Assembly (NCBI GenBank): GCA_009885535.1 | Contig: VFKL01000106.1 | Span: forward strand, 83-64,082 | From: Chitinophagaceae bacterium | GTDB taxonomy: Bacteria; Bacteroidota; Bacteroidia; Chitinophagales; Chitinophagaceae | DNA: 64,000 nt | Direction of reading: 5' to 3' | Shown: piece after piece, positions 27,101 to 63,656 of the stretch | Position numbering within the stretch: position 1 is the first letter of the stretch | Layout of the letters: each line of letters starts with the position of its first letter | The notes under the pieces: model-generated | Seen by the model: only the letters and a program-made list of their open reading frames with translations | Told to the model about the DNA's origin: nothing | The model's database searches: none | Program-made: the position numbers and the translations under genes

Positions 27101-30100
27101 GCAACGGGTTGTGTTAGTGTTGCTACAACACCATTTACTTTAAAAGTAAAATCATTGGTAAATATTGGAAATCCTATAACCACACCACAAACTACCTGTT
27201 TGGGTTCTACGTTTACGATTCCAACTTTAACGGTTTCTTCAACATCTCCAACACCAACATACCAATGGTATAGCAATACGGTAAATTCAAATATAGGAGG
27301 TGCAATTTTAGGGTCGACAAATGGGGCACAAACAGCCACCTATTCACCTCAATCAAATGTGGTGAGTACATTGTATTATTACAGCACAATTACAAGTAAT
27401 GGATGTATTGCAACAACAAATCCTTCAGGCTTATGGTCTGTAACAACTGGCCCTACTTCAGGAGCATTAAGTGGAACTTATTACATACCAACAACAGCTT
27501 TAAATGATTGCAAAGTATTCTTAACAATAGCAGCAGCCGTAAACTACTTAAATGTAAATGGTATTTCAGCTTCTGTAATATTTAAAGTAGCTCCAGGATA
27601 TACAGAAACTTTGAGCAGTACATTGGCATTAGGAAGTACAACTTTAAACAATACAACCTCTACAAAAACCATCCGTTTTGAAAAGAATGGAGCAGGTACA
27701 AATCCTTTGATTACGGGTTATACAGGTGGAACTACAACATCATCATCAACAATACCAGATGGTATATGGAGTTTGCGTGGCGTGGATTACGTTACCATCG
27801 ATGGTATTGACATTAGAGAAAATGCAAGTAACACAACTGCTGCTTCGCAAATGGAGTATGGATATGGTTTATTTAAATTAGGTGTGGCAGATGGTGCTCA
27901 AAATGATACGATTAAGAATTGTACCATCACGTTAAATAAAAACAACACTACTCCATCAACCAATTTCTTTAATGGTGCTACAGGTATTGCCATGACAAAC
28001 GCTACAGCTGATGCTGCAAATACTTTATTAACACCAAATAACGTTACAGGATCTAACTCCAATAATACATTTATATCAAACACAATCAGCAATGTAAACG
28101 TAGGAATTGGAATAATTGGTTTCGCGGCAAATGATCAAGTATCTTTTGCAGATGTAAACAATTTAGTAGGAGATACCATCACTTCAACAAAGGGGAATTC
28201 AATTACCAATTTGGGTGGAGGAACTACAGCAAACAATACAGAAGTTTCAGCAGGTGTTTTATTGAAAAATCAATTGAATGCTTTAGTGGGTTACAACACC
28301 ATTACAGGAGCTGGTCATAATGAAGATCAATATGGTGTTAAATCAGATAATTCGGTTGGTACGGGAAGTATTGTAATCAAACTAAACAACATCAGTATTA
28401 CAGGAGCTGGAGATAGAAAATATGCTGGTATTGAAAATAATACTGGAGGTGGAGCATCTTCTATAATCAACATTACAAACAATACGTTGAATGTAAAAAT
28501 TCCAAATGGGGTAACAACTACAGTTGCTGCATCAGTAACAGGAATTAAAAATGGCTCAACACTTACTCCAGGTACAATCAACATTAGTAACAATAGCTTT
28601 ACGAATAGTACAATAGCTGGAGTTGGGAAATGGGCAGGGATTTACAATACTACCAACACAACGGCTGTTACTGGTGTTATTAACATGAACAATAACACCA
28701 TAACTGGAAATACAATTTTAGCAACGGGTACATTTAATGGGTTACAATCTGATGCAAATACTTATGGTACTCAAACGATAAGTACCAACACAATTACCAA
28801 TAATTCAAAAACCATTTCTGGTGTTACTGAATTGAGTTGGTTGAGTCAGAAACCATCAAGTGTAACAAATTGCGGAACGTTAAATATTCAAAATAACTCC
28901 ATACAAAATAATGATGTTCTAGTTGCAAGTGGAAATGGAAGTAATGTGAATGTTTATGGAGTTTATTCTTTTGGTATAAAAACTGGATCTTTATTTAGTT
29001 TCAGTGCCAATAAAATTCGCAAACTGAGTTTGAAGGATATTAATTCTGATAAAACAGGTAAATTATGGGGCTTATTTACAAATTCTAACGTTGCAGCCAA
29101 CATAACAGAAACGGTAGTTGACAATAAAATAAGCAATTTGTATATTTCTGCTGCGGCTGGAAGTTCTGCCACACACACAATAATAGGGTTACAGCTTGGT
29201 AGTACATTACCTACAACAACTGCTAGAAATATAATCCAAAACAGAATCGATAGTTTTTATGTTAGAAACAACGGAGATGCTACACCTTTATATGCATCAA
29301 CAGTAACGGGTATTTACATTCCAACAGGAACTGGTAATCACGCGATTTATACAAATAAGATAGCCCATTTAGTTCCTTTTGGTTCTAATGGTATTGCACG
29401 TGGATTCTGGCTTGGAATAACTCCATCAAGTAGCTTACCAGTAAACATGTACAACAATATGATTGAATTGGATTTGACTCAAGCATTTGATGGAGCTTCT
29501 GCTACATCATTAAATAATACCGATGCCATAAGAGGTATTGATATAACTGGAGGTGTGGCAGGAACTCCTTATAATTTCACATTCAACACCATTAGAATTG
29601 GTGGTTCTGGTGGTGCTAACTTTGGTACCAGTGTTGTAGATATGAATGTAAATAATCCAACGTATACGTTTAAAAATAACGTGTTTGTAAATAAATCTAC
29701 TCCAGGTGCATCAGGAAATGTAGCGGTGTTAAGGGCTGTAGCTAGTCAATTAACAGTCGGCACTAAATATAGCACTTCATCAAGTAATAACGCATATTAC
29801 GCTGGAGTTGCATCATCATCTAATTATTTGTTTACTGATGGAACCAATAATTTACAAACATTGGCTTTATTACAATCAAGTTCTAGGGAATTACTTTCTG
29901 TAGAAAATGCAGATCCTATATTTATTCGTTCTTCAGATAACCAGGATAGTTTGCACATGAATACAAGTTCAAATTGTGCTTTCAATGGTACTGGTGCTGT
30001 TGGTACTGGTTATACAACCGATATTGATGGAACTACAAGATTATCGCCTCCAGATATGGGCGCTGATGAGTATAATACAACAGGTGGTGGAGTAGGTGAG

Positions 30101-32392: not shown

Positions 32393-32611
32393 ATGAAAAA
32401 TATGAAAATTAAATTAAGAACAGCATTTGTTGGAGTTGCTTTACTTGTGTTAACTATTGGTTTTAATTTCAATTCAATAGCTCAAGATCCGCCACCACCA
32501 GATGGCTGCATAGATCCATTAGATCCTGCTTGTCCTATAGACGGAGGTTTAGTTTTTCTAATAGCAGCAGGTGTTGGAATTGCTGCAAAAAATGCCAGAA
32601 GAAAAAATTAA
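32393..32611 (+). CDS. 72-aa mini-protein: signal peptide plus a PEP-CTERM-like tripartite sorting signal (PIDGG, TM helix, basic tail)
   Basis: Sequence MKNMKIKLRTAFVGVALLVLTIGFNFNSIAQ / DPPPPDGCIDPLDPAC / PIDGG-LVFLIAAGVGIAA-KNARRKN. The gene starts 30 nt after the giant gene's stop with no terminator between them. A strong terminator follows it. Confidence 0.6.
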   Translation: MKNMKIKLRTAFVGVALLVLTIGFNFNSIAQDPPPPDGCIDPLDPACPIDGGLVFLIAAGVGIAAKNARRKN

Positions 32612-32636: not shown

Positions 32637-32667
32637 AAAAGACATGGAGAAATTCATGTCTTTTTTT
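32637..32667 (+). terminator. Rho-independent terminator after the giant-gene/mini-gene pair
   Basis: The 10-bp stem aaaagacatg (32637-32646) / catgtctttt (32655-32664) encloses the loop gagaaatt and runs into a T-tract. Confidence 0.65.
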
Positions 32668-32738: not shown

Positions 32739-32806
32739 AACCGTTGAAACGGTTATGAAACAAACGATTTCCATAACCCACGTTTTAAACCGTGGGTTAT
32801 GGAAAT
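32739..32806. repeat. hairpin pair related to the 17.4-17.7 kb palindromic element
   Basis: A small hairpin, aaccgtt..aacggtt, lies at 32739-32754. A perfect 16-bp stem, atttccataacccacg (32767-32782) / cgtgggttatggaaat (32791-32806), has the loop ttttaaac. It shares the core 'aacccacg(g)ttt(t)aaaccgtggg' with the repeats upstream of the giant gene. Confidence 0.85.
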
Positions 32807-32934
32807 TTAATGGTTTAAACCCTTTATTTATTCATTTCAATTAACATAATCAAATGATTTAAAATTGGCAAAGTAGTTTTTTTTATTGAAATTTGTTTGT
32901 AATTGGCTGCTAATTTTAAGTACCCATAAATATT

Positions 32935-33744
32935 ATGACACAACCCCTTTTTTGTTTAAATTTCTTTTTTAAAAACAAACAGATTTTACTAATAATGTTT
33001 GTATGCTTTTTGATTGCGTTTACTCAATCTTGCACAGCACCAAAGAATACAACTTATTTTAATAAATTGGTAAGAGATACAATCATACAAACCAATTTAA
33101 TTAAATTCCCTGAAGTAATTATACAAAAAAAAGATTTACTAGGAATTTCTGTGAGTAGTTTAAATACTGAACTTGATGAGAAGTTCAATAAAATAGGCAT
33201 GATAAAATCTGATTTTCAATTTGGAGATGGATTTTTAGTAAATGAAAATGGCAGCATAAACATACATTTTTTAGGATTCGTTCAAGTAGAGGGATTAACC
33301 AGAAATCAGCTAAGAGAAAAACTTGAAAAAGAATTAACCCCGTTTCTTAAAGAGCCGATTGTAACCATACAATTTTTAAATAAAAAAGTAACAGTAATGG
33401 GGGAAGTAAAAGTACCTCAAGTGGTGTTTTTAACAGAAGAATACACGCCTTTAATTGATGTATTGGTAAAATGCGGTGATTTGGGAAAAGATGCATTTGT
33501 TAATGACATTATGGTAATTAGAGATTCATCTAATTTCAAACAAATAAAACATTTGAATCTTGAAGATCATAGTATAATTAGTTCTTCATGGTATTATGTA
33601 AAACCCAATGATGTGGTGTATGTTAAATCAGATATCAGTAAAACCTATAAAGAAGAAAGAATGCGATCTCTACAAATTTTGGTTTCTTTAGGTGTTTCTG
33701 TATTTTCATTAATTATTATCATTTTAAATTCCCTAATAAAATAA
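32935..33744 (+). CDS. wza: polysaccharide export outer-membrane protein (Wza-like, Poly_export + SLBB)
   Basis: 269 aa. Candidate lipobox 'LIAFTQSC' and 'GFLVNENGSINIHFLGFVQVEGLTRNQLREKLEKEL'. The start may be the internal Met at 32995. Confidence 0.8.
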   Translation: MTQPLFCLNFFFKNKQILLIMFVCFLIAFTQSCTAPKNTTYFNKLVRDTIIQTNLIKFPEVIIQKKDLLGISVSSLNTELDEKFNKIGMIKSDFQFGDGFLVNENGSINIHFLGFVQVEGLTRNQLREKLEKELTPFLKEPIVTIQFLNKKVTVMGEVKVPQVVFLTEEYTPLIDVLVKCGDLGKDAFVNDIMVIRDSSNFKQIKHLNLEDHSIISSSWYYVKPNDVVYVKSDISKTYKEERMRSLQILVSLGVSVFSLIIIILNSLIK

Positions 33745-33759
33745 TTTCAGTAAAGCGGC

Positions 33760-36192
33760 ATGAGCGAAGAATTTGAAAAAATACAGAAGAATAATGATGG
33801 GATTTTAACGCAAATTGTTTTTCGTTATTTACCTTTTTGGCCAGTTTTTGTTTTAATAGCTGCCGCAACTTTACTTATATCAATAGTGTCGCTTCGCTCT
33901 CAAACAAAAATCTATGTAGCCTCCTCTAAAGTTTTATTAAAAGATCCTCAAAAAGGTGGAGGTGATTCTAAAGTTTTAGAAGCTTTAAATATTTTCAGCG
34001 AAAAGAAAATTGTTGAAAATGAATTGGTGGTTCTTAAATCTTCTTCCCTAATGGAAGAGGTGGTAAGAGAAATAGATTTATATACATCAGTTTATAACGA
34101 AGGAAGGGTTCAAGTTGAAACTCTTTATGGAGATAATGCACCGCTATATTTCATTGCACAAAATAAAGATAGTATTGAATCTTCTGGGAAGTATTTTTTT
34201 CAAATAAATTGGAAAAAAAGTACCATAAACATTGATGGTAGAAATGTCTCTTTTAATGAGGATATTAAAATTGGAAAAACTCAATATAAAATTGTACCAA
34301 ACTTAAATTACAATAAAGACCTTTCTGGAAAAAATTATTTTGTTGTTTTTAATTCTATAAAATCTACGGCTTCAGGAATTATCGGTTCTATAAAAGCTGC
34401 TCCAATTAGCTATGCTTCTACGGTTATTGATGTTAAAATGGAAACACCAATTCCTCAAAAAGGGATTGATATTTTAAACAAGCTTTTTGAAGTGTACAAT
34501 AAAGCAGGGATTGATGATAAAAATCTAATTGCAACTAAGACTTTAAATTTTATTGAGGATCGATTAAACACAGTAATTAATCAGCTGGATAGCGTTGAGA
34601 AAAATATAGAACAATTTAAAACAAAAGAAGGCGGATTAGAATTGGGCACTCAAGCAACCACTTTTTTTGAAACAGTAAAAGAATTAGATAAGGCAAATAG
34701 CACATTGGATTTGCAATTGCAACTTTTAAAAGAAGTATCTAACTATATTAGTAGCAAAGGGAAAAAAACAGGAACCGTTCCATCGCTTATTTTACTAAAT
34801 GACGAAACACTGAGGGGATTATTGAATCAATTATATTCTGCCGAATTTGAATTGGATCAAGCAAATGCAACATCAGGAAAACAAAGTAATGTTGTATTAT
34901 TAGCAGTAGAAAAAATAGAAAAATTAAAAGGAAGCATTAGAGAAAGTATTGGAAATTTACAAAGCAACTTACTTACACAAAAGCGGATTAATGAACAGAA
35001 TATTGCAATGAACAAGCAATTGTACACTTCTGTTCCTCAAAAGGAACGAACACTTTTGGAAATTAGCCGACAACAAGCCATTAAAAATAATATTTACACA
35101 TACCTACTTCAAAAACGAGAAGAAACCGCTTTATCTTCAGCCTCAACAAGTGCTGATTTGAGGGTTTTAGAAAGAGGTTCTTTTAGTGGACCAATAAGCC
35201 CAATCGCAAGTACATATTATTGGGCTGGTTTTTTAATTGGGTTGATTATTTTTATTCTGTATGTTCAACTCTACGAACAATTGAACAATCGGATTATGTT
35301 TCGAGCTGAAATTGAAAAGAGAACAAACGTGCCCGTAATTGGAGAAATCGTACAATCAAAAAATAGAGAGACCATTGCCATTACTGAAGGAGTTAGGACT
35401 GTTATTGCAGAGCAGTTTAGGGCTCTAAGAACCAATCTTAACTTCATGGGTTATAATGAAAAAAACAATGTGTTGTTGGTTACTTCAAGTATTTCTGGAG
35501 AAGGGAAGAGTTTTGTTTCTTTGAACTTAGCCATTAGTTTAACATTAACCGGAAAAAAAGTGGCATTGCTAGAAATGGATTTAAGAAAACCCAAATTGAG
35601 CAAATTACTCGGAATGAAAAGGGATATTGGAATCTCTAGTCACCTAGTTAATAAATCAACTATTGAAGAAATTATAAAACCAACACAGTTTAATAATTTA
35701 TTTTTATTAGGAGCAGGCCCCATTCCCCCCAATCCTACAGAGTTAATTAGTAAGCCGGAATTCAAACAAATGATTGATACCCTCAAAGAAAAGTTTGATT
35801 ATGTAATCATTGATACAGCACCAGTAGGGCCAGTTACAGATGCCCAACTTTTGTCAGATTATGCAAACCTTACTTTGTTTATTATACGTCACAAACATAC
35901 ACCCGCTGTTTTTGTAAAAATGATTGAAGGATTTAATGCGGAGAAGAAATTCAATAACATGTGTATTGCCTTTAATGGTATTAAACCAAGAGGTGTATCA
36001 TTATTTAATTACGGTTTTGGAGGTTATGGTAACGGATATGGTTATGGGTATGGTTACGGGTATGGTTACGGGTATGGTTATGCGTATGGTAAAGCTGATA
36101 CAAGCTATTATTTAAATGACGATAATACACCTGGGTTTAAAAATATAAATGATATCAGCAAATTTCTCTTGAATTTATTCAAAAGAAAATAG
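33760..36192 (+). CDS. wzc: Wzc-type chain-length determinant / BY tyrosine kinase with a Gly-Tyr repeat tail
   Basis: 810 aa. An N-terminal Wzz-like domain has two TM helices and a coiled-coil periplasmic region. The P-loop is 'TSSISGEGKSF' and the Walker B-like motif is 'VIIDTAPVG'. The C-terminus reads 'YGNGYGYGYGYGYGYGYGYAYGKADTSYY'. Confidence 0.85.
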   Translation: MSEEFEKIQKNNDGILTQIVFRYLPFWPVFVLIAAATLLISIVSLRSQTKIYVASSKVLLKDPQKGGGDSKVLEALNIFSEKKIVENELVVLKSSSLMEEVVREIDLYTSVYNEGRVQVETLYGDNAPLYFIAQNKDSIESSGKYFFQINWKKSTINIDGRNVSFNEDIKIGKTQYKIVPNLNYNKDLSGKNYFVVFNSIKSTASGIIGSIKAAPISYASTVIDVKMETPIPQKGIDILNKLFEVYNKAGIDDKNLIATKTLNFIEDRLNTVINQLDSVEKNIEQFKTKEGGLELGTQATTFFETVKELDKANSTLDLQLQLLKEVSNYISSKGKKTGTVPSLILLNDETLRGLLNQLYSAEFELDQANATSGKQSNVVLLAVEKIEKLKGSIRESIGNLQSNLLTQKRINEQNIAMNKQLYTSVPQKERTLLEISRQQAIKNNIYTYLLQKREETALSSASTSADLRVLERGSFSGPISPIASTYYWAGFLIGLIIFILYVQLYEQLNNRIMFRAEIEKRTNVPVIGEIVQSKNRETIAITEGVRTVIAEQFRALRTNLNFMGYNEKNNVLLVTSSISGEGKSFVSLNLAISLTLTGKKVALLEMDLRKPKLSKLLGMKRDIGISSHLVNKSTIEEIIKPTQFNNLFLLGAGPIPPNPTELISKPEFKQMIDTLKEKFDYVIIDTAPVGPVTDAQLLSDYANLTLFIIRHKHTPAVFVKMIEGFNAEKKFNNMCIAFNGIKPRGVSLFNYGFGGYGNGYGYGYGYGYGYGYGYAYGKADTSYYLNDDNTPGFKNINDISKFLLNLFKRK

Positions 36193-36259
36193 TATTTCCT
36201 AACAATAAATAAATCGTCTTTGGTTACAGTTTATACTGTAACTGAGGACTAGCGAAGCT

Positions 36260-36766
36260 TTGTCTTATATACAAGAAAATATCAATTGGTACGTTGTGTA
36301 CACGCGCCCAAGATGGGAAAAAAAAATAGCCACTTTACTAGATAATCGTGGCATTGAAAATTATTTACCCTTGAACAAAGTGGTTAAACAATGGAGTGAT
36401 AGAAAAAAAATAGTTCAAGAGCCTTTATTTAAAGGATATTTATTTATTAAAATTGCAGAGAAAGAAAAATGGGACGTAAAGTTAGTTGATGGTATTTTGA
36501 ATTATGTACATTGGTTAGGTAAACCTGCAGTTGTTAAGGAATCCGATATTAAAAATATCAAAAAATTTTTACAAGAGTTTGACAATGTCCAGGTGGTTGA
36601 CAAATCACTCCAAAAAGGAGATGAAGTTATTGTTCAACAAGGAATAATGATGAATTACAAGGGAATAGTGTTAGAAGTGTTGCATAATAAAGCCATAGTA
36701 AATATTGACAGTATGGGCATTAAATTAAATGCAACATTTGATATAAATAAATTAGAAACGGTTTAA
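36260..36766 (+). CDS. UpxY-family transcription antiterminator (NusG paralog)
   Basis: 168 aa. NGN-like 'NWYVVYTRPRWEKKIATLL...ENYLPL' and KOW-like 'GDEVIVQQGIMMNYKGIVLEV'. The apparent start is TTG. Confidence 0.8.
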   Translation: MSYIQENINWYVVYTRPRWEKKIATLLDNRGIENYLPLNKVVKQWSDRKKIVQEPLFKGYLFIKIAEKEKWDVKLVDGILNYVHWLGKPAVVKESDIKNIKKFLQEFDNVQVVDKSLQKGDEVIVQQGIMMNYKGIVLEVLHNKAIVNIDSMGIKLNATFDINKLETV

Positions 36767-37791: not shown

Positions 37792-39585
37792 ATGTGTAGA
37801 ATAGCCGGTATCGTTAATTTCAATTGGAGTTCTGAAAAGAATCAGCAAACAGTTGAAAATATGTGCAACTTTCTAAAGCATGGTGGCCCAGATGATGGTG
37901 GCATTTTCACCTCAGAAAGTGGTAATTTGGTTTTAGGCAACAGAAGATTGGCTTTAGTTGATTTATCTCAAGCAGGTCATCAACCCATGCATTATCAAAA
38001 TCAGTTTACCATTACGTATAATGGAGAATTGTATAATTATCTTGAATTAAAAAATCAACTGATTCAATTAGGACATCAGTTTTCAAATCATACCGATACA
38101 GAAGTTATACTTGCTGCATTTGCAGAATGGAATGTGCATGCTTTTGAAAAATTTAATGGCATGTATGCATTTGCGTTATATGACCAATCAAACGAGATGC
38201 TTTATGTGGTACGTGATGTGGTAGGTATAAAACCACTATATTATTCAGTTGATGATAATCAACTCGTTTTTGCTTCTGAAGTAAATGCGTTTAATGCGGT
38301 AGATTTTAATTGGACGAAAAACGAACATTGGCCTGTTTTTTTAATGGCTTATGGACATATCCCAGAACCATACACCACATTTAAAGAAGTTTCCACATTA
38401 CATAAAGGGAGTTTTATAAAGTATGATTTAAAGCATAGAAAACATTCGATACAATCTTATTCCTTTTATAGTTTTAGTCAAGATTTAAATGTTGGTGATA
38501 ATTTAAAAAGCACAATAAGAAATCAAATAGAAAATGGAGTAAAATCTCAACTTGTAGCAGATGCTCCAGTTGGTGTTTTTTTAAGTGGCGGAATTGATTC
38601 AAGCATCTTGGCATTAATTGCGGATCAACATAAAAAAGAAGGCATTCAATCATTATCCATCTACTTTAACGAAAACGAATATTCTGAAAAGAAATATCAG
38701 GATATTGTGATGTCGAAATTGAAAGGCGAAAAGCATCAGTTTTTATTATCAAAAAATGATTTTGAAAATCATCTTCCTCAAGTTTTACAATCTATGGATT
38801 TGCCAAGTTGTGATGGCATAAATACTTGGTTTATTAGCAAACATGCCAAAGCACTTGGATTGAAAGCCGTTTTATCTGGCATTGGTGCGGATGAATTATT
38901 TGGCGGTTATCCTTCTTTTCAGCGAATGAGTTTGGCGCGTAAATTATCTTTGACACCCAATTTTCTGCTAAATATTTTTAAGAAAAATACCAAAAAGCCA
39001 TTTAATAGAATTTCTTATTTAGGAATGGATGGGATAAAAGGAATGTATCTTTTTATGCGCGGGCATTACAACGTTCATGAAATTGCCAACTATTTAGAAG
39101 CTGAAGAACGTGAAATTTGGAACATCATTAATGATAATCCAATGATGGGAGATATAAAACAAATGCCCACTCAAAATCAAGCGAGTTGGATGGAGTTTAA
39201 CATGTACATGCAAAACCAGCTTTTGAAAGATGCTGACGTGATGAGTATGGCACATGGCGTTGAAATCAGGGTGCCGTTTTTAGATCAAGCGCTTGTAAAA
39301 ACAATGTTTAGTATAAACGCAAATGATAAGTTTTCAGGTAAGTTGCCCAAGCAATTGCTAATAGATTCATGTAAAGATATTTTGCCAGAACAAGTTTGGA
39401 ATCGACCAAAAATGGGATTCAGTTTTCCTTTCTCAACTTGGATGAAAAACAATAGTTATTTAGAGGACTTGATGCAATACAGCAATAAAAATACAAAGGC
39501 GTATTATAACGATTTCAAACAAGGAACTTTACATTGGTCTCAAATGATGTCGTTGATGATTATGAAAACGAGGAATGAAGCATAA
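37792..39585 (+). CDS. asparagine synthase-family glutamine amidotransferase, paralog 1
   Basis: 597 aa. Ntn nucleophile 'MCRIAGI', 'YNGELYNY' and PP-loop 'FLSGGIDSS'. The ATG abuts the fcl stop. Confidence 0.85.
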   Translation: MCRIAGIVNFNWSSEKNQQTVENMCNFLKHGGPDDGGIFTSESGNLVLGNRRLALVDLSQAGHQPMHYQNQFTITYNGELYNYLELKNQLIQLGHQFSNHTDTEVILAAFAEWNVHAFEKFNGMYAFALYDQSNEMLYVVRDVVGIKPLYYSVDDNQLVFASEVNAFNAVDFNWTKNEHWPVFLMAYGHIPEPYTTFKEVSTLHKGSFIKYDLKHRKHSIQSYSFYSFSQDLNVGDNLKSTIRNQIENGVKSQLVADAPVGVFLSGGIDSSILALIADQHKKEGIQSLSIYFNENEYSEKKYQDIVMSKLKGEKHQFLLSKNDFENHLPQVLQSMDLPSCDGINTWFISKHAKALGLKAVLSGIGADELFGGYPSFQRMSLARKLSLTPNFLLNIFKKNTKKPFNRISYLGMDGIKGMYLFMRGHYNVHEIANYLEAEEREIWNIINDNPMMGDIKQMPTQNQASWMEFNMYMQNQLLKDADVMSMAHGVEIRVPFLDQALVKTMFSINANDKFSGKLPKQLLIDSCKDILPEQVWNRPKMGFSFPFSTWMKNNSYLEDLMQYSNKNTKAYYNDFKQGTLHWSQMMSLMIMKTRNEA

Positions 39586-50446: not shown

Positions 50447-52270
50447 ATGTGCGGAATAGCGGGCATTATTGGCCCAAATAATAATCAATTTTCCATCACC
50501 TCCATGCTCGAAAGAATTAAGCACCGAGGTCCTGACGGATTATTTTACTGGAATAGCAATAACATCGATTTGGCACATGCACGATTGAGTATTATCGACT
50601 TAAGTGCCAATGCCAATCAACCAATGATTGATGAGGAAACGGGTAATGTAATCGTGTTCAACGGTGAGATTTATAATTACATCGAATTAAAAGAACAATT
50701 AAAAAATAAATACAACTTCAAAACGCAATCGGATACAGAAGTATTACTCGCCACTTATCGAATTTACGGCTTGGAAATGTTTTCGAAACTAAGGGGAATG
50801 TTTGCTTTTTCTTTATTTGATCCTAAATTAAACAAGGTGTTAATTGCCCGCGATCGTTTGGGCATCAAACCCTTGATTTATCGTAAAATTGGTAACACAT
50901 TTTTATTTGCTTCAGAAATAAAATCTTTAATTAATCAAGGGATTTCGGATAAAGTAAATGAACTAAAAGTATACGAATTTTTGGCTGATGCAAGAATGGA
51001 TGCAGATGAACATACTTTATTTGACGGCGTGAAACACTTGTTGCCAGCGCATTACATGTGGGTTGGTTTAAATGGTGAAAGCTCGGTTCCAAAAACATTT
51101 TGGGATTTTCCAGAATTGGGAAATAGGAAATTTGATGAAAATGCACGACTTGAATTGATTGAAACAATGGATGAAAATATAAAAATCCATTTGCGTTCTG
51201 ATGTTCCTGTTGGTACTTTTTTATCCGGAGGTTTAGATTCTTCTACTGCAACTGTTTTTGCTTTGAAAAACATGAAACAAGATAATCTAAATGTATTCTC
51301 CGCTATTCTTCCTTACTTCCATCCAGAGAACTCGCTTATTAATGAAATTGCAGATTCTGATAAACGGATTATTAAAAATGAGCTGCTATTATCTGGCGAT
51401 CATTTTTTTGAAGATATTCCAAAAGTAATTTACCAAAACGGAAGTCCAATTCTTGATGGTTCTATGTATACCCATTATAAATTATGTAAGCTGGCTAAAG
51501 ATAAAAATATTAAAGTGTTGCTTTCCGGTTCTGGTGGAGATGAATTATTTGGTGGTTACGAATCTATGGTAAATGCACAACATGCTAGATTGCTATATCA
51601 AGGGAAATTTTTAAAGTATTTCACAGAACTTTTAAATTTTAGAAAAGCAAGAGAAAATAACACATACTCACATCTGTTTTTAAGAAGCAGTTATGAATAT
51701 CTACCGGTATCGGTTAGACGCTTTGTAAAAAATACACAATTACACCTGAAGTTTAAACATATAACCATTCATCCGGATGTGCAACATTATTACTATAATC
51801 ATCCAGATCCGTATGTTGCCAATATGCTTAATAATTACAAAAGCTGGACCGCGCCTCATTTTTTACATTATGAAGATCGAAACTCTATGAATTTTGGAAT
51901 TGAAATTAGGGTGCCATTTTTTGATCATAAACTCATCGAATTTGTACTTCAGTTTAATACGGATGATATCATTAGTGGAAACAGTAAAAGCATCATGCGA
52001 AAAACATTTAGGGGAATTGTTCCTGATAAAATTCTAAATCAAAAAGGAAAATACGGATTCCCATCCCCTTTAGATCATACACTTCGTACTAATGAAATTG
52101 GAAAAGAAATTTTTTTTGATAGAGCAGAAAAAACATTTTTATTAGATCCAAAGAAAACGAAAAAATTAGGCATGGATTTTTATAACGGGAAAGCCGATTT
52201 GAGCACTTTTTGGCGAACATTGAGCTATATGATTTGGTATCAATTGTATTTTGAAAACAAAAATCAGTAA
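50447..52270 (+). CDS. asparagine synthase-family glutamine amidotransferase, paralog 2
   Basis: 607 aa. 'MCGIAGII', 'FNGEIYNY' and PP-loop 'FLSGGLDSS'. Confidence 0.85.
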   Translation: MCGIAGIIGPNNNQFSITSMLERIKHRGPDGLFYWNSNNIDLAHARLSIIDLSANANQPMIDEETGNVIVFNGEIYNYIELKEQLKNKYNFKTQSDTEVLLATYRIYGLEMFSKLRGMFAFSLFDPKLNKVLIARDRLGIKPLIYRKIGNTFLFASEIKSLINQGISDKVNELKVYEFLADARMDADEHTLFDGVKHLLPAHYMWVGLNGESSVPKTFWDFPELGNRKFDENARLELIETMDENIKIHLRSDVPVGTFLSGGLDSSTATVFALKNMKQDNLNVFSAILPYFHPENSLINEIADSDKRIIKNELLLSGDHFFEDIPKVIYQNGSPILDGSMYTHYKLCKLAKDKNIKVLLSGSGGDELFGGYESMVNAQHARLLYQGKFLKYFTELLNFRKARENNTYSHLFLRSSYEYLPVSVRRFVKNTQLHLKFKHITIHPDVQHYYYNHPDPYVANMLNNYKSWTAPHFLHYEDRNSMNFGIEIRVPFFDHKLIEFVLQFNTDDIISGNSKSIMRKTFRGIVPDKILNQKGKYGFPSPLDHTLRTNEIGKEIFFDRAEKTFLLDPKKTKKLGMDFYNGKADLSTFWRTLSYMIWYQLYFENKNQ

Positions 52271-56569: not shown

Positions 56570-57303
56570 AAAAAGAAACAATAAACAAAGTGCTTCGTCG
56601 ATTTGGGGTTGAATTACATGGATTAGGATTTATACAATCGCTAAAAAAAGTAGAATTTCAACAAAATGCATTTGATGTTCAAAAAGAATTATTGTTGAGT
56701 ACGCCGAAAGTGATTTTTGACATTGGTGCTAACAGAGGAGATACCGCAATAAAATATTCAATTCTATTTCCTTTAGCATCTATTTATGCTTTTGAACCTT
56801 TTTTAGAAACCTTTCAAAAGCTTAATGATAATGTAAATGAAATGCCTAAAATCAGTACATATCAAATCGCTATTTCTGATAAAAAAGGAGAAACTGTTTT
56901 TTTTAGCAATAAAAATGAAGACACCAATTCTTTATTATCATCTTCAAAAATCGGATTGTCGTCCGACGAACAAGTGAAAACTATAGGGCAAACAAATGTA
57001 AATACAGAAACCATAGATGCATTTTGTTCCGACCATAAAATCGAAGGCATTGATATACTCAAAATGGATATTCAAGGCGCCGAGCTTTTAGCATTAAAAG
57101 GGGCAACTGGTTTACTTTCAGAAAAAAAAATAAAGGCAATATATACAGAAACATATTTTAGAAGACAATATAATAATCAACCATTATTTCATGAAATCTC
57201 AGCATTTCTTGCTCTGTATGGATATTATTTACAAGATATTTATTCGCCCATTTATGGTAACGGGAAAATCGCTTGGTGCGATGCGATTTTTTTACCAGAA
57301 TAA
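56566..57303 (+). CDS. FkbM-family methyltransferase
   Basis: 245 aa. 'VIFDIGANRGDTAI...IYAFEP' and 'IDILKMDIQGAELLALKGA'. It joins the upstream gene through an ATGA overlap. Confidence 0.8.
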   Translation: MKKETINKVLRRFGVELHGLGFIQSLKKVEFQQNAFDVQKELLLSTPKVIFDIGANRGDTAIKYSILFPLASIYAFEPFLETFQKLNDNVNEMPKISTYQIAISDKKGETVFFSNKNEDTNSLLSSSKIGLSSDEQVKTIGQTNVNTETIDAFCSDHKIEGIDILKMDIQGAELLALKGATGLLSEKKIKAIYTETYFRRQYNNQPLFHEISAFLALYGYYLQDIYSPIYGNGKIAWCDAIFLPE

Positions 57304-57323
57304 AATTTAATACTAAGTTTTTA

Positions 57324-58700
57324 ATGACTGATTTATTCAAAAAAGATGTACCAATTGATTGGCGAATTTATTTTGGAATCATAATTTTCACCAAATTGTT
57401 TTTTCCAGATCTCAGCTTATATAGTTTTTTTGCATTAATGATTGCGGCTTATCAATTTATGCTGTTGTTTTACTCCATTGGATTTATTTTGCCGGTTAGA
57501 TATTTAGCTGGTTCTCTAATGTGTGTGCAAATGCTTGTGGGACCAGCGTTTGCATATAATGGATTAGATGAATATCAATTGGGTTTTTTAAAAATGCAAG
57601 TGGAAGAAACAATATATTTCAGCTATGTTATTCCTGCTACAATTATGTTTTTGATAGGATTACGAATAAAATTCAATCAAAATGTTTCAGACGAATTTAT
57701 TAATATCAATCAATTAAAAGCATATGTGAAAAATAATCAACAAACCATGTATACGTTTATTGTAATTGGTTTTATTTCAAGTTTGGTTTCTCCATTTTTT
57801 AGTTCTGAGATAGGATTTGTCTTTACCTTATTAGGTTCATTTAAATTTGTAGGGTTATTTATGATTATTCTAGGGGATAATAAATTAAAACCCATTTCAT
57901 TATTTGTAGTATTGTCATCAATAATTTTAAGTTCTTTAGGTCAAGCCATGTTTCATGACTTGATAATTTGGATGTTATTTATGGGATCTGTATTTTCTAT
58001 AAAATATAAGCCATCTAATTATTTGAAATTTGTGTTAGCCGTTTTTTTTATTGCTATTGCCATTTTTATTCAAATGCTAAAAGGGGATTATCGAGAAGCC
58101 ACTTGGAAAGAAGGGAAGGAAGGGAACGTAACCAATTTTGCTGCAACTACAAAAACGAAAAGTGATCAAAACCAATTATTTACTTTTGAAAAACTTAAAC
58201 AAAGTAACATCAGAATTAATCAAGGATTTATTATTACAAATATCATGAATAATGTTCCCGAAAAAGAAAATTATTCAAATGGAAAAGAGTTAATGCAAAT
58301 ACTTGAAGCTGCTGTATTACCCAGGGTAATTGCGCCCAATAAATTAAATGCTGGTGATCGCTTTTTTTTCATGAAATGGGCAGGATTTCCAATTGCTGCA
58401 GGTACTTCAATGGGTTTGAGTTCTGTTGGAGATGGGTATGTGAATTTTGGTAAATTTGGCGGAATGGTATTTATGTTTTTTTTAGGCCTCTTATTTAGTT
58501 ATGTAGTTTCTATTTTTTATAAACACAGTTTCGTATACCCAATTTTGTACTTATTTCCAACTTTGGTTTTTTATTATCCAATGCGTGCCGACTGTGAACT
58601 TCAAACAATACTAGGCCATCTGGTGAAATCTTGCTTTTTGATATTTGTACTATTAAAAGTTTGGAAAAGTTATTTTGTTTTGAAAACAACATCGAATTGA
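57324..58700 (+). CDS. polytopic Wzy / O-antigen-ligase-like membrane protein
   Basis: It has about 10 hydrophobic helices and a large hydrophilic loop, 'KGDYREATWKEGKEG...RVIAPNKLNAGDRFFF'. It shows no Wzx/MATE-like pattern. The ORF is open from 57273. I chose ATG 57324 ('MTDLFKKD') because it avoids overlap with the upstream gene. Confidence 0.5.
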   Translation: MTDLFKKDVPIDWRIYFGIIIFTKLFFPDLSLYSFFALMIAAYQFMLLFYSIGFILPVRYLAGSLMCVQMLVGPAFAYNGLDEYQLGFLKMQVEETIYFSYVIPATIMFLIGLRIKFNQNVSDEFININQLKAYVKNNQQTMYTFIVIGFISSLVSPFFSSEIGFVFTLLGSFKFVGLFMIILGDNKLKPISLFVVLSSIILSSLGQAMFHDLIIWMLFMGSVFSIKYKPSNYLKFVLAVFFIAIAIFIQMLKGDYREATWKEGKEGNVTNFAATTKTKSDQNQLFTFEKLKQSNIRINQGFIITNIMNNVPEKENYSNGKELMQILEAAVLPRVIAPNKLNAGDRFFFMKWAGFPIAAGTSMGLSSVGDGYVNFGKFGGMVFMFFLGLLFSYVVSIFYKHSFVYPILYLFPTLVFYYPMRADCELQTILGHLVKSCFLIFVLLKVWKSYFVLKTTSN

Positions 58701-59812
58701 CCACCCTCATCTCCATACCTTGGTTTACACCCGCTTATCTTGCTGGAGGTCCTATTCAATCCGTTTTTACCATGGTAAACAATTGCGATGAGTTGGATTT
58801 TAAAATAATTACCAGTAACTCAGATATGAATTATGTGCCATTAAAAAATATCTCGGTGAATGAATGGACTGATTTCAATAACCAAACTAAAGTTTTTTAT
58901 GGAGATAAGCAGTTGTCTTTATTTAAACACATACAATTAATAAAATCTATAAAAGCCAATGCCGTTTTCTTAATTGGCATTTATTCTTTAAGGTTTACCA
59001 TTTTACCAATTTTGTTTTCACGCTCCGCAAACATCATCCTCTCCGCTAGAGGCATGCTTCATCCGCCTGCGCTCCGTCAAAAAGCATTTAAAAAGAAACT
59101 TTATCTTGCTTTTTTAAAACCTATTTTGAAATGGAAAAAAGTTTCATTTCATGCTACCGACGAAATTGAAAAAAAACATATTCTTGCTGTAATGGGAAAC
59201 AAAGCTAAAGTTTGGGTGGCTCAAAATATTCCAAACATTCGAAAATCAAATGTTTTATTTAAGTCAGAAGGCGTTATCAATTTATTAACTGTAGCCCTTA
59301 TTGGCCCGATGAAAAATCATTTGCAAATTTTAAAAGCGTTAAAAGATTGCAAGTATAATATTCAATATGATATTTGCGGCCCTATTTATTTTCCAGATTA
59401 TTGGAATGAATGTTTAGATGTAATTAAACAATTACCATCCAATGTTAAAGTTGTTTATCATGGGCCAATACCTCCAAATGAATTGGATTCTTTTTATACC
59501 AATGCACATGTTTTCATTTGTCCGAGTCAAAGTGAAAACTTTGGTCACGCTTTATTCGAAGGGCTCAGTGCTGGAAAACCACTTATAACCAGCAACAATA
59601 CACCGTGGAACGATTTGAAAAAAAATAATGCAGGATTGAATGTAGATCCAATTGCTGAGCAGTTAAAAGCCGCTATTGATTTTTTTGCAGAAATGAATGA
59701 AACGGAGTATTCAAAATGTAGTGTCGCAGCTAATAAATATGCAACAAACGCAATTGACATAACACAAATTAAAAAATCCTATCATCAAATGTTCCATCAT
59801 AATGAAGGATAA
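58697..59812 (+). CDS. glycosyltransferase family 4
   Basis: 'ISIPWFTPAYLAGGPIQSV' is a GT4 N-terminus, and 'CPSQSENFGHALFEGLSAGKPLITSNNTPW' is also present. The ORF is open from 58631. TTG 58697 overlaps the upstream stop (ATTGA). Start confidence is low. Confidence 0.7.
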   Translation: MTTLISIPWFTPAYLAGGPIQSVFTMVNNCDELDFKIITSNSDMNYVPLKNISVNEWTDFNNQTKVFYGDKQLSLFKHIQLIKSIKANAVFLIGIYSLRFTILPILFSRSANIILSARGMLHPPALRQKAFKKKLYLAFLKPILKWKKVSFHATDEIEKKHILAVMGNKAKVWVAQNIPNIRKSNVLFKSEGVINLLTVALIGPMKNHLQILKALKDCKYNIQYDICGPIYFPDYWNECLDVIKQLPSNVKVVYHGPIPPNELDSFYTNAHVFICPSQSENFGHALFEGLSAGKPLITSNNTPWNDLKKNNAGLNVDPIAEQLKAAIDFFAEMNETEYSKCSVAANKYATNAIDITQIKKSYHQMFHHNEG

Positions 59813-60392
59813 TCTTTTATTTAAAAATTCAGATTTTAAGCAATTTATCATTAAGTTTTTTGCTGTGTTTGCTTTTCTGTATTTTGGAACATACTTCTGG
59901 ATTGGCTTTGTTGCGCCTGGTGGATATTATAGTGAGTTTGCTGCAAAATATTTAGATTATGTAAGCGCTATTAAAACATCACTTTTGATTGGAACCAAAA
60001 CATTGCTTTCATTTTTTGATATTCAAACTGCTCAATTCAATAATCATGTTATTCGATTTGTAAATGGAAAAGGCGTTCGAATTGCCTATGATTGTGTTGG
60101 TTATGGGGTATATAGTTTTTGGATTGCTTTTGTTGTTGCCAATAAATCGTCATTTACTCGAAAACTAGTTTGGACAATAATCGGATTGTTTTTGCTTTGG
60201 AGCGTAAATGTTATCAGAATAAGTCTCTTTTTAGTTTCCGTAAATAAAAATTGGGAAATGCCTTTAGGTATCAATCATCATGATTGGTTTACAATTGTTG
60301 CTTATCTAGTTATTTTTTTAATGATATTTGCATTCGATAAAAACAATAACAATCAAAAAAGAAATAAATCAGTTTACGAAAACCCTATTTAA
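59802..60392 (+). CDS. exosortase-family protein (short, XrtF-like)
   Basis: 196 aa and polytopic. 'RIAYDCVGYG' (Cys98, nt 60093-60095), 'SVNVIRISLFL' (Arg139) and 'GINHHDWF' (His159/160) occur in the order and approximate spacing of the exosortase/archaeosortase catalytic Cys-Arg-His. It overlaps the upstream GT4 gene by 11 nt. Confidence 0.6.
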   Translation: MKDNLLFKNSDFKQFIIKFFAVFAFLYFGTYFWIGFVAPGGYYSEFAAKYLDYVSAIKTSLLIGTKTLLSFFDIQTAQFNNHVIRFVNGKGVRIAYDCVGYGVYSFWIAFVVANKSSFTRKLVWTIIGLFLLWSVNVIRISLFLVSVNKNWEMPLGINHHDWFTIVAYLVIFLMIFAFDKNNNNQKRNKSVYENPI

Positions 60393-60413: not shown

Positions 60414-62141
60414 ATGAATATTATAGGAATAAACGCTTTTCACGCCGATGCATCTGCAGCCATTTTTGTAAATGGAAAAATGATTGCAGCAATTGAAGAA
60501 GAACGTTTTAGAAGAGTAAAACATTGGGCAGGATTTCCAGAATTAGCGATTAAATTTTGCTTAAATGAAGCTGGGATTGGCATTGAAGAAGTTGATTATT
60601 TTGCTATTGGTAGAAATACAAACGTAAAACTATTTAAGAAATTAATTTACGTAGCTAAAAATCCTTTTGGAAATTTTAGCGCCATTAAAGAAAGATTCAT
60701 CAATCGTAAAAAAGTATCTTCCATTGAAGAACAATTGGCTCAAGCATTTGGCATGTCGGCTTCTGATTTTTCTGGCAAAGTAATTAATGTTGAACATCAT
60801 AGAAGTCATTTGGCCTCTGCTTTTTTTCCTTCACCTTTTAAAGAAGCCGCTTGTTTATCCATTGATGGCTCTGGTGATTTTTCTACCGCCATGACTGCCA
60901 TTGGAAAAGGCAATAAAATTGAAGTCCTTCAATCTATTGATTTCCCACATTCTATTGGGTTGTGTTATACCGCATTTACCCAACTACTTGGATTTCCACA
61001 TTATGGCGATGAATACAAAGTAATGGGCATGGCGCCTTATGGATCACCAACATTTATGGACAAGTTACATGATGTGGTGAAACTTACCGATGATGGTTTA
61101 TTCAAATTGAATTTAAAATATTTCAGAAGCGCAACCTCTGGTATTATTGATTATGGGGAAGATTTCATTCCCGTTGTAGCGCCAATGTTCAGTGATTACA
61201 TGATTGAAAAGTTTGGACAACCACGCAAAAAAGATGAGCCATTAACTCAAGCACATAAAGATCTAGCAGCATCTGTTCAAAGAATGACGGAACAGGTTCT
61301 TTTTCACATGCTCAATCATCTACATAAAAAAACCGGATTAGAGAGTGTATGCATTGCCGGTGGTGTGGCGCAAAATAGTGTAGCCAATGGTAAGATTACC
61401 AGAAACACGCCATTTAAAAATGTATATATTCCTTCTGCAGGTCATGATGCGGGAATATCAATGGGCGCAGGGATGTACACGCATCATCAACATTTAAATT
61501 TACCTAGAATTGAACCTATTTTTTCTGCATACACAGGAAGCCATTTTTCAAATTCAGAAATAAAAGAAATTTTAATCGCAAAGAATATCAATTTCAATTT
61601 TGTTGAAGATGTTGATTTGTATGATCAGGTTTCGGATTGTATGATAAATGGTGGGGTAGTAGGATGGATGAGTGGACGTGCAGAATTTGGCCCTCGTGCT
61701 TTAGGTGGGAGGTCAATTTTAGCCGATCCAAGAAGACAAGACGCCAAAGAATTGTTGAATTCGAAAATTAAAAGAAGAGAAAGCTTCAGACCATTTGCAC
61801 CATCAATTTTAAAAGAATATGTTTCCGAGTTTTTTGAATTGGATGAACCCGTGCCATTTATGGAAAAAGTGTTTCCAATTAAAAAAGATAAACAGCATTT
61901 AATTCCTGCAGTTACCCATGTTGATGGCACTGGAAGATTACAGACTGTAGACAAATTAATCGCCCCAAGATATTATCAATTGATAGACACATTCAGAAAG
62001 AAAACGGGTATTCCGATTTTGTTAAATACGTCATTCAACGAAAACGAACCAATAGTCAATACACCCGAAGAAGCCCTAAATTGTTTTTTAAGAACCAATA
62101 TGGATATGCTTGTTCTTGAAAATTATATCATCACAAAATAA
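60414..62141 (+). CDS. carbamoyltransferase (NodU/CmcH family)
   Basis: 575 aa. 'IIGINAFHADASAAIFVNGKMIAAIEEERFRRVKHWAGFP' and 'GPRALGGRSILADP'. Confidence 0.85.
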   Translation: MNIIGINAFHADASAAIFVNGKMIAAIEEERFRRVKHWAGFPELAIKFCLNEAGIGIEEVDYFAIGRNTNVKLFKKLIYVAKNPFGNFSAIKERFINRKKVSSIEEQLAQAFGMSASDFSGKVINVEHHRSHLASAFFPSPFKEAACLSIDGSGDFSTAMTAIGKGNKIEVLQSIDFPHSIGLCYTAFTQLLGFPHYGDEYKVMGMAPYGSPTFMDKLHDVVKLTDDGLFKLNLKYFRSATSGIIDYGEDFIPVVAPMFSDYMIEKFGQPRKKDEPLTQAHKDLAASVQRMTEQVLFHMLNHLHKKTGLESVCIAGGVAQNSVANGKITRNTPFKNVYIPSAGHDAGISMGAGMYTHHQHLNLPRIEPIFSAYTGSHFSNSEIKEILIAKNINFNFVEDVDLYDQVSDCMINGGVVGWMSGRAEFGPRALGGRSILADPRRQDAKELLNSKIKRRESFRPFAPSILKEYVSEFFELDEPVPFMEKVFPIKKDKQHLIPAVTHVDGTGRLQTVDKLIAPRYYQLIDTFRKKTGIPILLNTSFNENEPIVNTPEEALNCFLRTNMDMLVLENYIITK

Positions 62142-62160: not shown

Positions 62161-62910
62161 ATGAAAATTACCATTATAACGGTTACGTATAACTGCGAAA
62201 AATATTTGGAACAATGTATTCAATCTGTACTCAATCAAAGCTATAAAAATGTTGAATATATAATTGTAGATGGCGGATCTAACGAACACACAATCAATAT
62301 TATAAAGAAATACGAAAATCGAATTTCAAAATGGATTTCTGAGCCAGATAATGGTATGTTTGATGCTTTAAACAAAGGAATGAAAATGGCAAAAGGCGAT
62401 GTGGTTGGTGTGTTGCATAGCGACGATGTTTTTGCCTCGGATGATGTATTGGAAACGATAGCCAATACGTTTCAAACCAAAAATGTTGATACGCTTTATG
62501 GTGATTTAAATTATGTTTACGAAGACGATATTTTTAAAATTTTCAGAAAGTGGGAAAGTAAACCATTTGATAGAAATTTATTTAAAACAGGTTGGATGCC
62601 CGCACATCCTGCATTTTATTTCAAAAGAACATTACTTGAAAAATATGGTGATTATAAGATTGAATTTTATTCAGCGTCGGATTATGAATTCATGGCGAGG
62701 TATTTATATAAACACAACTTAAGTACCATTTATCTTCCTAAGCTGATTATTAGAATGCGTAAGGGAGGTTTGAGTAATAATAATTTCTTAAAGAGAATAG
62801 AAGCAAACCGAAATGATTATAAAGCGATGAAAGCAAATGGAATACCGTTTCCATTATTTGTTTCTATATTAAAACCTTTGAGTAAATTACACCAATACTA
62901 TAAAAAATAA
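62161..62910 (+). CDS. glycosyltransferase family 2
   Basis: 249 aa. 'ITIITVTYNCEKYLEQCIQSVLNQSY...IVDGGSNE' and 'HSDD'. Confidence 0.8.
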   Translation: MKITIITVTYNCEKYLEQCIQSVLNQSYKNVEYIIVDGGSNEHTINIIKKYENRISKWISEPDNGMFDALNKGMKMAKGDVVGVLHSDDVFASDDVLETIANTFQTKNVDTLYGDLNYVYEDDIFKIFRKWESKPFDRNLFKTGWMPAHPAFYFKRTLLEKYGDYKIEFYSASDYEFMARYLYKHNLSTIYLPKLIIRMRKGGLSNNNFLKRIEANRNDYKAMKANGIPFPLFVSILKPLSKLHQYYKK

Positions 62911-62918
62911 TTTTTAAG

Positions 62919-63656
62919 ATGTTCAGTTTTTTCAAGAAAAAAGAAGTGGTAGATATTAAGTTTTTTCCGATTAAAACGGATATGCATTCTCATATTCTTC
63001 CAGGAATTGATGATGGATCGCCTAATTTGGAAACTTCTATTTTTTTGATAAAAGGATTGATGGAAATGGGAGTGACAAAATCAATAGCCACACCTCATGT
63101 TATCAGCGATTTGTATAGAAATACACCAACTACAATTAATGCAGCTTTAAATAGTTTGAAAAAAGAATTGAAAAATCAATCCATCAATTTTGAAGTTCAT
63201 GCAGCAGCGGAATATATGTTGGATAGTTATTTTTTAGAGATTTTAAATAAAGAAGAGAAATTACTCACGATAAAAGACAATATTATTTTAACGGAGTTCT
63301 CTTATGCATCAATGCCAAATGAACCAGAGCAATATTCTTTTGAAATTCAAAATGTAGGCTATTCGCCGATTTTAGCGCATCCAGAAAGGTATCCATATTA
63401 CCACAACAATTACAAAATGTATCATCGCTTTATTGATTTGGGCTTTATGTTGCAAATCAATCTGCTTTCTCTAACTGGATATTATGGTAAAGAAGCCGCA
63501 AAAGCTGCAGAATATATGATAAAGAATGGTATGGTTTCTTTTGTTGGGACGGATTTGCACCACGAAAGGCATTTGAATATGCTTCAAGATTCACGAAATC
63601 AAAAGTTATTTAAATCGTTTCTTGAGCACCAAACTTGGAATGATTTTCTGGAATAA
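62919..63656 (+). CDS. cpsB: CpsB/CapC-type PHP-domain protein-tyrosine phosphatase
   Basis: 245 aa. 'TDMHSHILPGIDDGS', 'IATPH' and 'AHPERY'. It is the expected partner of the Wzc BY-kinase. Confidence 0.85.
   Translation: MFSFFKKKEVVDIKFFPIKTDMHSHILPGIDDGSPNLETSIFLIKGLMEMGVTKSIATPHVISDLYRNTPTTINAALNSLKKELKNQSINFEVHAAAEYMLDSYFLEILNKEEKLLTIKDNIILTEFSYASMPNEPEQYSFEIQNVGYSPILAHPERYPYYHNNYKMYHRFIDLGFMLQINLLSLTGYYGKEAAKAAEYMIKNGMVSFVGTDLHHERHLNMLQDSRNQKLFKSFLEHQTWNDFLE

Follow-up and report, generated by a model that had tools for sequence, protein, structure and literature searches.

The 64,000-nucleotide (nt) stretch of contig VFKL01000106.1 from a Chitinophagaceae bacterium that was analyzed here, called the window below, contains one large polysaccharide locus of about 31 kb with its genes on the same strand (32935-63656). 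Near the distal end of this locus lies a gene for a small exosortase, and at its head a gene for a mini-protein with a PID-CTERM signal, the candidate target of that enzyme. The features concerned, all on the plus strand, are given below in the order in which they are encoded, with bit scores set against the curated cutoffs.

18185 to 32362, plus strand: giant surface protein of 4,725 amino acids (aa) with a type A C-terminal domain of the type IX secretion system (T9SS) (TIGR04183, 33.4 against a cutoff of 23; Por_Secre_tail, 25.5)
32393 to 32611, plus strand: PID-CTERM mini-protein of 72 aa, candidate dedicated substrate (NF046080, 30.8 against a cutoff of 26)
32638 to 32667, plus strand: hairpin resembling a terminator, with a U-run, immediately behind the PID-CTERM gene (-13.6 kcal/mol, z = -4.3)
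32935 to 36766, plus strand: operon head with a Wza-like exporter (Poly_export/SLBB), a Wzc-like tyrosine autokinase (TIGR01007, 155 against 108), and an UpxY-family antiterminator (UpxY, 137.5 against 100)
36823 to 57303, plus strand: biosynthesis genes for two epimerases, two AsnB-type amidotransferases, several GT4/GT2/GT11 glycosyltransferases, an ABC-2 permease and its ATPase, acetyltransferases, a DegT aminotransferase, and an FkbM methyltransferase (Pfam, NCBIfam)
57273 to 58700, plus strand: polytopic membrane protein of 475 aa, two genes upstream of the exosortase
58631 to 59812, plus strand: GT4 glycosyltransferase (Glycos_transf_1, 76 bits), overlapping the exosortase start by 11 nt
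59802 to 60392, plus strand: XrtY-like exosortase of 196 aa, putative active site Cys98, Asn136/Arg139, and His159/His160
60414 to 62141, plus strand: carbamoyltransferase of the NodU/CmcH type (Carbam_trans_N, 218 bits; Carbam_trans_C, 234 bits), 22 nt after the exosortase
62161 to 63656, plus strand: GT2 glycosyltransferase (WcaE-like) and CpsB-like PHP phosphatase (Cps4B; CpsB_CapC, 152 bits), at the end of the locus

The exosortase open reading frame (ORF) begins with ATG and, with the stop codon counted in its coordinates, encodes a protein that carries the motifs YDCVGYG (Cys98), NVIRISL (Arg139), and NHHDW (His159/His160). The ORF and its motifs are present as the preliminary description of this DNA, made from the letters alone, had claimed, and its assignment of the product to the exosortase/archaeosortase family was borne out by the hidden Markov model search that it had called for. 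Scored with NCBIfam models and their curated cutoffs, the protein passes the general family model TIGR04178 (exo_archaeo) with 34.5 bits against a cutoff of 23 (E = 2e-8), residues 92 to 177 aligning with profile positions 1 to 90 of 97. Among the subfamily models, exosortase Y (XrtY, NF046083) comes out on top, at 108.5 bits against a cutoff of 160 (E = 3.2e-31), and its alignment runs end to end (profile positions 5 to 167 of 168). Exosortase X (XrtX, NF046081; 59.6 bits, cutoff 170), XrtF (TIGR04128; 30.4 bits, cutoff 90, E = 4e-7), and the XrtH model (30.3 bits, cutoff 86) likewise stay below their cutoffs. The local Pfam-A copy gave no significant match for the protein and no PF09721 (Exosortase_EpsH) match at E <= 10; PF09721 is precomputed on several of its homologs. 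Since TIGR04178 is passed and the XrtF and XrtY cutoffs are both missed, the protein is an exosortase that is neither XrtF nor XrtY by the curated criterion. Judged from its sequence, it is a genuine membrane exosortase of the little-studied XrtY-like type and not an XrtF, the class to which its small size had led the preliminary description to liken it.

A database search returned 424 homologs at E <= 1e-3, nearly all from Chitinophagaceae genomes and metagenomes; in RefSeq and other sources the clade goes only by the name "exosortase/archaeosortase family protein." Cys98, Asn136, Arg139, His159, and His160 are invariant in an alignment of 31 homologs with 47 to 90% identity (alignment A1). 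A profile run against 1.8 billion cluster representatives yielded 777 relatives. Among 121 divergent full-length representatives (24 to 45% identity), Asn136 and Arg139 are kept in all 121, Cys98 and His160 in 120 each, and His159 in 105, so that the residue check proposed along with the family call comes out in its favor down to 24% identity. Cys, Arg, and His are suspected to form the catalytic triad in the exosortase/archaeosortase family (Haft preprint), and in ArtA, Cys173 and Arg214 are needed for activity (PMC9263693). The separation of these two ArtA residues, 41 positions, equals that of Cys98 and Arg139, in keeping with the spacing of roughly 40 residues noted at the outset. The full conservation of the Cys/Arg/His set argues for peptidase chemistry.

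The preference for XrtY extends to the relatives: ten representatives sampled over the score range all match this model best (95 to 158 bits, 0/10 past the cutoff) and reach at most 57 bits with XrtF. In a neighbor-joining tree the relatives form a star-like radiation, in which the window exosortase groups with P0121, P0124, and P0130 to P0132, and P0229, a near-threshold XrtY protein, falls in another clade. The XrtY-like protein is most likely an active, small exosortase with a four-helix core that belongs to a Chitinophagaceae clade nearest to exosortase Y.

An AlphaFold2 model based on the 31-sequence alignment is confident (predicted local distance difference test [pLDDT], 87.3; predicted template modeling score [pTM], 0.81). 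Helices are predicted at residues 10-37, 45-50, 53-71, 96-113, 118-149, and 159-193, together with a small beta unit at 76-93, and four of the helices are hydrophobic (10-37, 96-113, 118-149, and 159-193). Across the family, Lys and Arg are abundant in the N terminus, the 114-122 loop, and the C terminus and scarce in residues 38-95 and 148-158, which corresponds to about 0.25 Lys+Arg per residue on the inferred cytoplasmic side versus 0.09 on the outer side. This distribution favors an N-in/C-in topology with four membrane-spanning helices and residues 38-95 outside. By this heuristic, which combines the Lys+Arg distribution with the helices of the model, Cys98, Arg139, and His159/160 would all lie at the outer leaflet, on the extracytoplasmic side, a placement that the preliminary description had singled out for checking. 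No solved relative of the exosortase is present in the PDB by sequence or by fold: the family profile, run against PDB sequences, had no match with E below 0.4, and a Foldseek comparison of the model with the PDB gave no match at E <= 0.001.

Scanning one genome for each GTDB species brought up at least 226 loci with a relative of the exosortase, mostly from Chitinophagaceae, and 80 of them were fetched. These are nearly all from Chitinophagaceae (Ginsengibacter, Ferruginibacter, Hanamia, and Niastella), and the closest is a locus in a Chitinophagaceae metagenome-assembled genome, with an exosortase of 90% identity. Cultured carriers of the clade include Ferruginibacter sp. HRS2-29, Ginsengibacter hankyongi, and Hanamia caeni. 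A conserved arrangement surrounds the exosortase in all 80 fetched reference-species loci, and the conserved neighbors share its strand in every case. Of the loci with enough flanking sequence, 60 of 64 (94%) have a same-strand ortholog of the GT4 gene immediately upstream, and orthologs of the GT2 and CpsB-like phosphatase genes lie downstream in 54 of 56 (96%) and 52 of 54 (96%), respectively. The carbamoyltransferase ortholog follows downstream in 33 of 67 loci, and an ortholog of the 475-aa membrane protein is found upstream in at least 27 of 49 testable ones. The overlapping GT4 gene is a conserved partner of the exosortase gene.

The Pfam and NCBIfam matches of the neighbors confirm that the exosortase gene is embedded in a polysaccharide operon, as had been proposed, with the GT4 ORF ending inside it at 59812 and the carbamoyltransferase gene downstream. 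The accompanying view that this context is unusual for the phylum does not hold. Since GT4, GT2, and phosphatase genes are kept in 94 to 96% of loci, the polysaccharide context is the norm of the clade, and curated models already exist for XrtY, for the XrtY-associated glycosyltransferase XYAG1, and for PID-CTERM. The preliminary description had also remarked that no XrtF partner adjoins the gene. Indeed, no exosortase F system-associated partner was found in an NCBIfam scan of ten neighboring genes, the flanking ones being those for the GT4 enzyme and the carbamoyltransferase, but because the exosortase is not XrtF-like this absence is to be expected, and the place of conserved partner belongs to the GT4 gene.

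The gene orders around proteins closer to the curated XrtY set were compared as well. Near-threshold P0229 is encoded in the order GT4, GT2, Xrt, carbamoyltransferase, GT2; P0393, named "exosortase Y," in the order Xrt, hexapeptide acyltransferase; and P0392, a Flavobacterium relative, in the order GT2, Xrt, hexapeptide acyltransferase. All three contexts match variants that occur among the window exosortase's own relatives. A homology search seeded with P0229 gave five proteins, among which one bears the name "exosortase Y," and the comparison with true XrtY proteins thus rests on few examples. In one fetched locus (L079), two ORFs match the exosortase profile, which may reflect a frameshift or a duplication.

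The best NCBIfam match of the GT4 protein is XYAG1 (NF046085; 73 bits, cutoff 400). Its listed TTG start (58631) overlaps the preceding gene by 70 nt (58631-58700), and the XYAG1 alignment starts only at residue 32; taken together, these place the true start codon probably further downstream. The 475-aa membrane protein encoded by that preceding gene had no match in Pfam, NCBIfam, or PDB sequences. As no recognizable Wzy or Wzx was seen elsewhere in the locus, our guess is that it is polymerase-like. In a close relative, its ortholog (82% identity; L004, 7427-8896) contains an in-frame stop codon, which may mark a pseudogene or an assembly error.

The mini-protein came to light as one of the hits when every ORF in the window was scanned for a terminal hydrophobic helix with a basic tail behind it, and it gives substance to the earlier mention of a candidate substrate in the same region. 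A signal peptide is followed by about 20 mature residues (QDPPPPDGCIDPLDPACPIDGG), and the C-terminal end is made up of a hydrophobic helix and the basic tail KNARRKN; in parts, its sequence reads MKNMKIKLRTAFVGVALLVLTIGFNFNSIAQ / DPPPPDGCIDPLDPACPIDGG / LVFLIAAGVGIAA / KNARRKN. The tail is tripartite (PIDGG, LVFLIAAGVGIAA, KNARRKN), and the PID_CTERM model NF046080, whose cutoff is passed, covers residues 48 to 71 with profile positions 2 to 25 of 25. All 152 database homologs are similarly short (47 to 99 aa) and carry Pfam PF28310 (PID_CTERM); the local Pfam-A copy, which lacks PF28310, gave no match for the mini-protein. The motif DPLDPACPIDGG is invariant in 35 aligned mini-proteins (alignment A2), and in 33 of these a second Cys precedes the motif Cys by 7 to 8 residues. 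An Ala-Gln pair at the predicted signal-peptide cleavage site (residues 30-31) is nearly invariant in the same alignment, which would leave a Gln at the N terminus of the mature peptide. As a rule, substrates of signal peptidase I in Bacteroidetes start with Gln, which is then cyclized, and the Ala-Gln site fits this pattern; the sequence thus suggests a mature mini-protein with an N-terminal Gln, possibly as pyroglutamate.

The PID-CTERM gene starts 30 nt after the stop codon of the giant gene. In all related loci examined (L081, L082, L084, and L088), a large surface-protein gene likewise immediately precedes the PID-CTERM gene, the domain content varying (Ig_7/CUB, LTD/GEVED, or Cadherin-like). 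The terminator-like hairpin behind the mini-protein gene is flanked by A and T runs and is kept in position, not in sequence, in three of these relatives (L081, 10240-10265; L082, 10239-10270; L088, 10227-10250). The 30-nt gap and the hairpin directly 3' suggest that the mini-protein gene closes the transcription unit of the giant gene, apart from the wza operon.

A profile search of the window found exactly one PID-CTERM ORF and exactly one exosortase. The two genes lie 27.4 kb apart, with the exosortase downstream on the same strand, and this relation recurs at 27.2 kb in JBBJMM010000023.1, at 27.3 kb in k141_57363, and at 39.8 kb in CAVZYY010000001.1, again downstream and on the same strand. 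For two more enzyme and mini-protein pairs, the contigs are of equal length. The order giant protein, PID-CTERM gene, Wza, Wzc, NusG-like is kept in every context examined (L081, L082/L083, L084/L085, L088, and L090). Within 10 kb on each side of the 80 exosortase loci, a strict regular expression for a PID-like tail found none, and a profile search of the same loci agrees; the proposed target is encoded further upstream. In the window scans, among which PEP-CTERM's own model was not included, the PID-CTERM protein is the sole sorting-signal candidate. One-to-one sorting systems with nearby genes are a recognized pattern (Haft preprint), and the linkage of enzyme and target, though over 27 to 40 kb, would fit a dedicated system of this kind. 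On balance, we consider it probable that the exosortase is the dedicated sorting enzyme for one target, the PID-CTERM mini-protein encoded at the head of the same locus, in a system tied to polysaccharide production.

The cleavage, acceptor, and physiological role that we infer for this pair can be put as follows. The mini-protein would be exported by Sec, and its signal peptide would be removed after ..SIA, leaving an N-terminal Gln. The C-terminal helix and the basic tail would then position the invariant DPLDPAC-PID-GG motif on the inner membrane's outer face. There, in the same membrane leaflet, Cys98, helped by Arg139 and His160, would cleave at the PID motif, and the peptide of about 20 residues with its Cys-x8-Cys arrangement could be released or moved to an acceptor, lipid or glycan, that the locus produces. 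A bolder and rather doubtful extension would make the mini-protein not a conventional cargo but a payload peptide of about 20 residues, bearing an N-terminal pyroglutamate and a disulfide loop, in which the invariant DPLDPAC core would be the functional part. The exosortase would join this payload covalently at its new C terminus to a polysaccharide or lipid carrier made by the locus, yielding a peptide-capped or peptide-anchored glycan that might organize or anchor the giant T9SS adhesin.

Several observations weigh against the pairing of the exosortase with the mini-protein. Their genes bracket the locus, 27 to 40 kb apart, rather than being adjacent; a conserved terminator-like hairpin stands between the mini-protein gene and the polysaccharide operon, and the mini-protein gene looks cotranscribed with the giant T9SS gene. 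The exosortase remains below the XrtY cutoff (108.5 of 160), and our literature search found no experimental work on XrtY, XrtX, or PID-CTERM. The PID-CTERM motif contains an invariant Cys, which in other signals marks processing by glutamic-type myxosortases (Haft preprint). Furthermore, in accession order PID-CTERM (NF046080) directly precedes XrtX (NF046081), not XrtY, and the exosortase has glycosyltransferases as its most tightly conserved partners. The distance and the terminator, the invariant Cys, the accession order, and the glycosyltransferase partners would also be accounted for if the exosortase served the polysaccharide pathway in some other way or had targets encoded elsewhere, the mini-protein being processed by an enzyme outside the window, of the XrtX type or of the CPBP/myxosortase type. 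We regard this as the less likely arrangement, if one that deserves serious consideration: enzyme and mini-protein genes share a locus on four independent contigs with strand and order kept, the window holds neither a second exosortase nor, by domain scans, a CPBP/Rce1-type protease, and the Cys/Arg/His set speaks for a peptidase.

The remaining explanations fare much worse. That the gene encodes an XrtF-class exosortase without its usual partner, recruited into a polysaccharide operon in a way unusual for Bacteroidota, would fit its small size (196 aa), its Bacteroidota source, and the weak TIGR04128 match (E = 4e-7). It is refuted by the subfamily scores, which put XrtY at 108.5 bits and XrtF at 30.4 against a cutoff of 90, with all ten sampled relatives best on XrtY, and by the conserved context, which is kept in 94 to 96% of loci from at least 80 species, is shared by near-XrtY proteins, and lacks an XrtF-associated partner among the neighbors; we hold it to be very improbable. 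The giant 4,725-aa protein, encoded in the same region and conserved beside the PID-CTERM gene, was also considered as the substrate and rejected. It was not caught by the scan for tripartite signals and ends in ...KTSLKILF, with neither a terminal helix nor a basic cluster. Its T9SS type A C terminus (33.4 against 23) and its want of a tripartite tail make it T9SS cargo rather than an exosortase target, so that a role as substrate is even harder to credit than the XrtF assignment. Finally, the lack of a significant match in the local Pfam-A copy could be taken to mean that the motifs arose by chance in an unrelated membrane protein. The NCBIfam matches (E = 3e-31 and 2e-8), PF09721 on homologs, and the invariant residues rule this out, and its likelihood is negligible.

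Pairing the exosortase with the mini-protein brings the window closest to the database-curated set of XrtY (NF046083), XYAG1 (NF046085), and PID-CTERM (NF046080/PF28310): XrtY is the best subfamily for the exosortase, XYAG1 is best for the GT4 protein, and the mini-protein passes the PID-CTERM model. The window differs in scoring below the XrtY and XYAG1 cutoffs (108.5 of 160 and 73 of 400). Near-threshold P0229 shares with the window the order GT4, GT2, Xrt, carbamoyltransferase, GT2, but belongs to a separate clade of the star-like radiation. The existence of the curated models shows that curators already recognize this kind of system, and a literature search on XrtY, XrtX, exosortase Y/X, and PID-CTERM found no relevant publication. 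Most likely, the window system is a typical member of a kind that is catalogued and database-curated but unpublished. What the present locus adds is a widespread Chitinophagaceae clade that falls below the XrtY cutoff and is named only generically in annotation.

XrtF of the Flavobacteriia (TIGR04128, Fjoh_1448) is likewise a small exosortase homolog of Bacteroidota. XrtF and the exosortase F system-associated partner are required for the formation of biofilms and the colonization of surfaces, and the XrtF targets are unknown (PMC10936215, PMC12188702). The window exosortase differs from it in having no adjoining partner gene and in its score (30.4 bits against the XrtF cutoff of 90), and, unlike XrtF, it shares its locus with an obvious candidate target. 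The locus offers a clean candidate pair of enzyme and target for the small Bacteroidota exosortases, and the acceptor of the cleaved peptide, once found, would show the chemistry of exosortases in bacteria.

Likeness to better-known sorting systems is more distant. ArtA with its PGF-CTERM signal belongs to the same superfamily and has the same 41-residue Cys-Arg spacing. ArtA couples removal of the C-terminal helix to lipid attachment (Haft preprint). It differs in being archaeal, in its signal, and in its S-layer glycoprotein targets; lipid attachment in the window system is only a possibility. Myxosortases, which are glutamic endopeptidases of the CPBP/Rce1 type acting on MYXO-CTERM and JDVT-CTERM signals, resemble the window system in the invariant Cys beside the motif and the second Cys nearby, but the window contains no CPBP-type protease, and the exosortase is the only sorting-type enzyme in the locus.

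The XrtA/EpsH system of Proteobacteria with its PEP-CTERM signal shares with the window an exopolysaccharide locus with Wza/Wzc-type export, a tyrosine kinase, and an AsnB-type amidotransferase; the neighbors match XrtA-system models weakly, and the sorting signal is tripartite in both. XrtA is much larger and has many PEP-CTERM targets, whereas the window enzyme has 196 residues, a PID motif, and apparently a single mini-protein target. It also has no PF09721 match, and the window scans, run without PEP-CTERM's own model, brought up only the PID-CTERM protein as a sorting-signal candidate, which speaks against membership in XrtA/EpsH. The two AsnB-type glutamine amidotransferases of the window are encoded at 37792-39585 and 50447-52270 (plus strand); with the amidotransferase model of the XrtA/PEP-CTERM system (cutoff 817), the second reaches 327 bits. 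Amidated or amino sugars could serve as the transpeptidase acceptor.

Between the PID-CTERM gene and wza, an Rfam scan gave sub-threshold chance matches only. A perfect 17-bp hairpin lies in this intergenic region upstream of the Wza-like gene (32766-32807; -26.6 kcal/mol, z = -5.75); four related loci have no such hairpin at the corresponding place, and no Rfam family matched it. Two further genes stand upstream of the giant gene. One encodes a sensor histidine kinase of 1,247 aa (13531-17274, plus strand), whose likeness to the XrtA-system protein PrsK is no more than generic (78 bits, cutoff 300). The other, on the minus strand at 3775-4476, encodes an intramembrane protease of the PrsW family.

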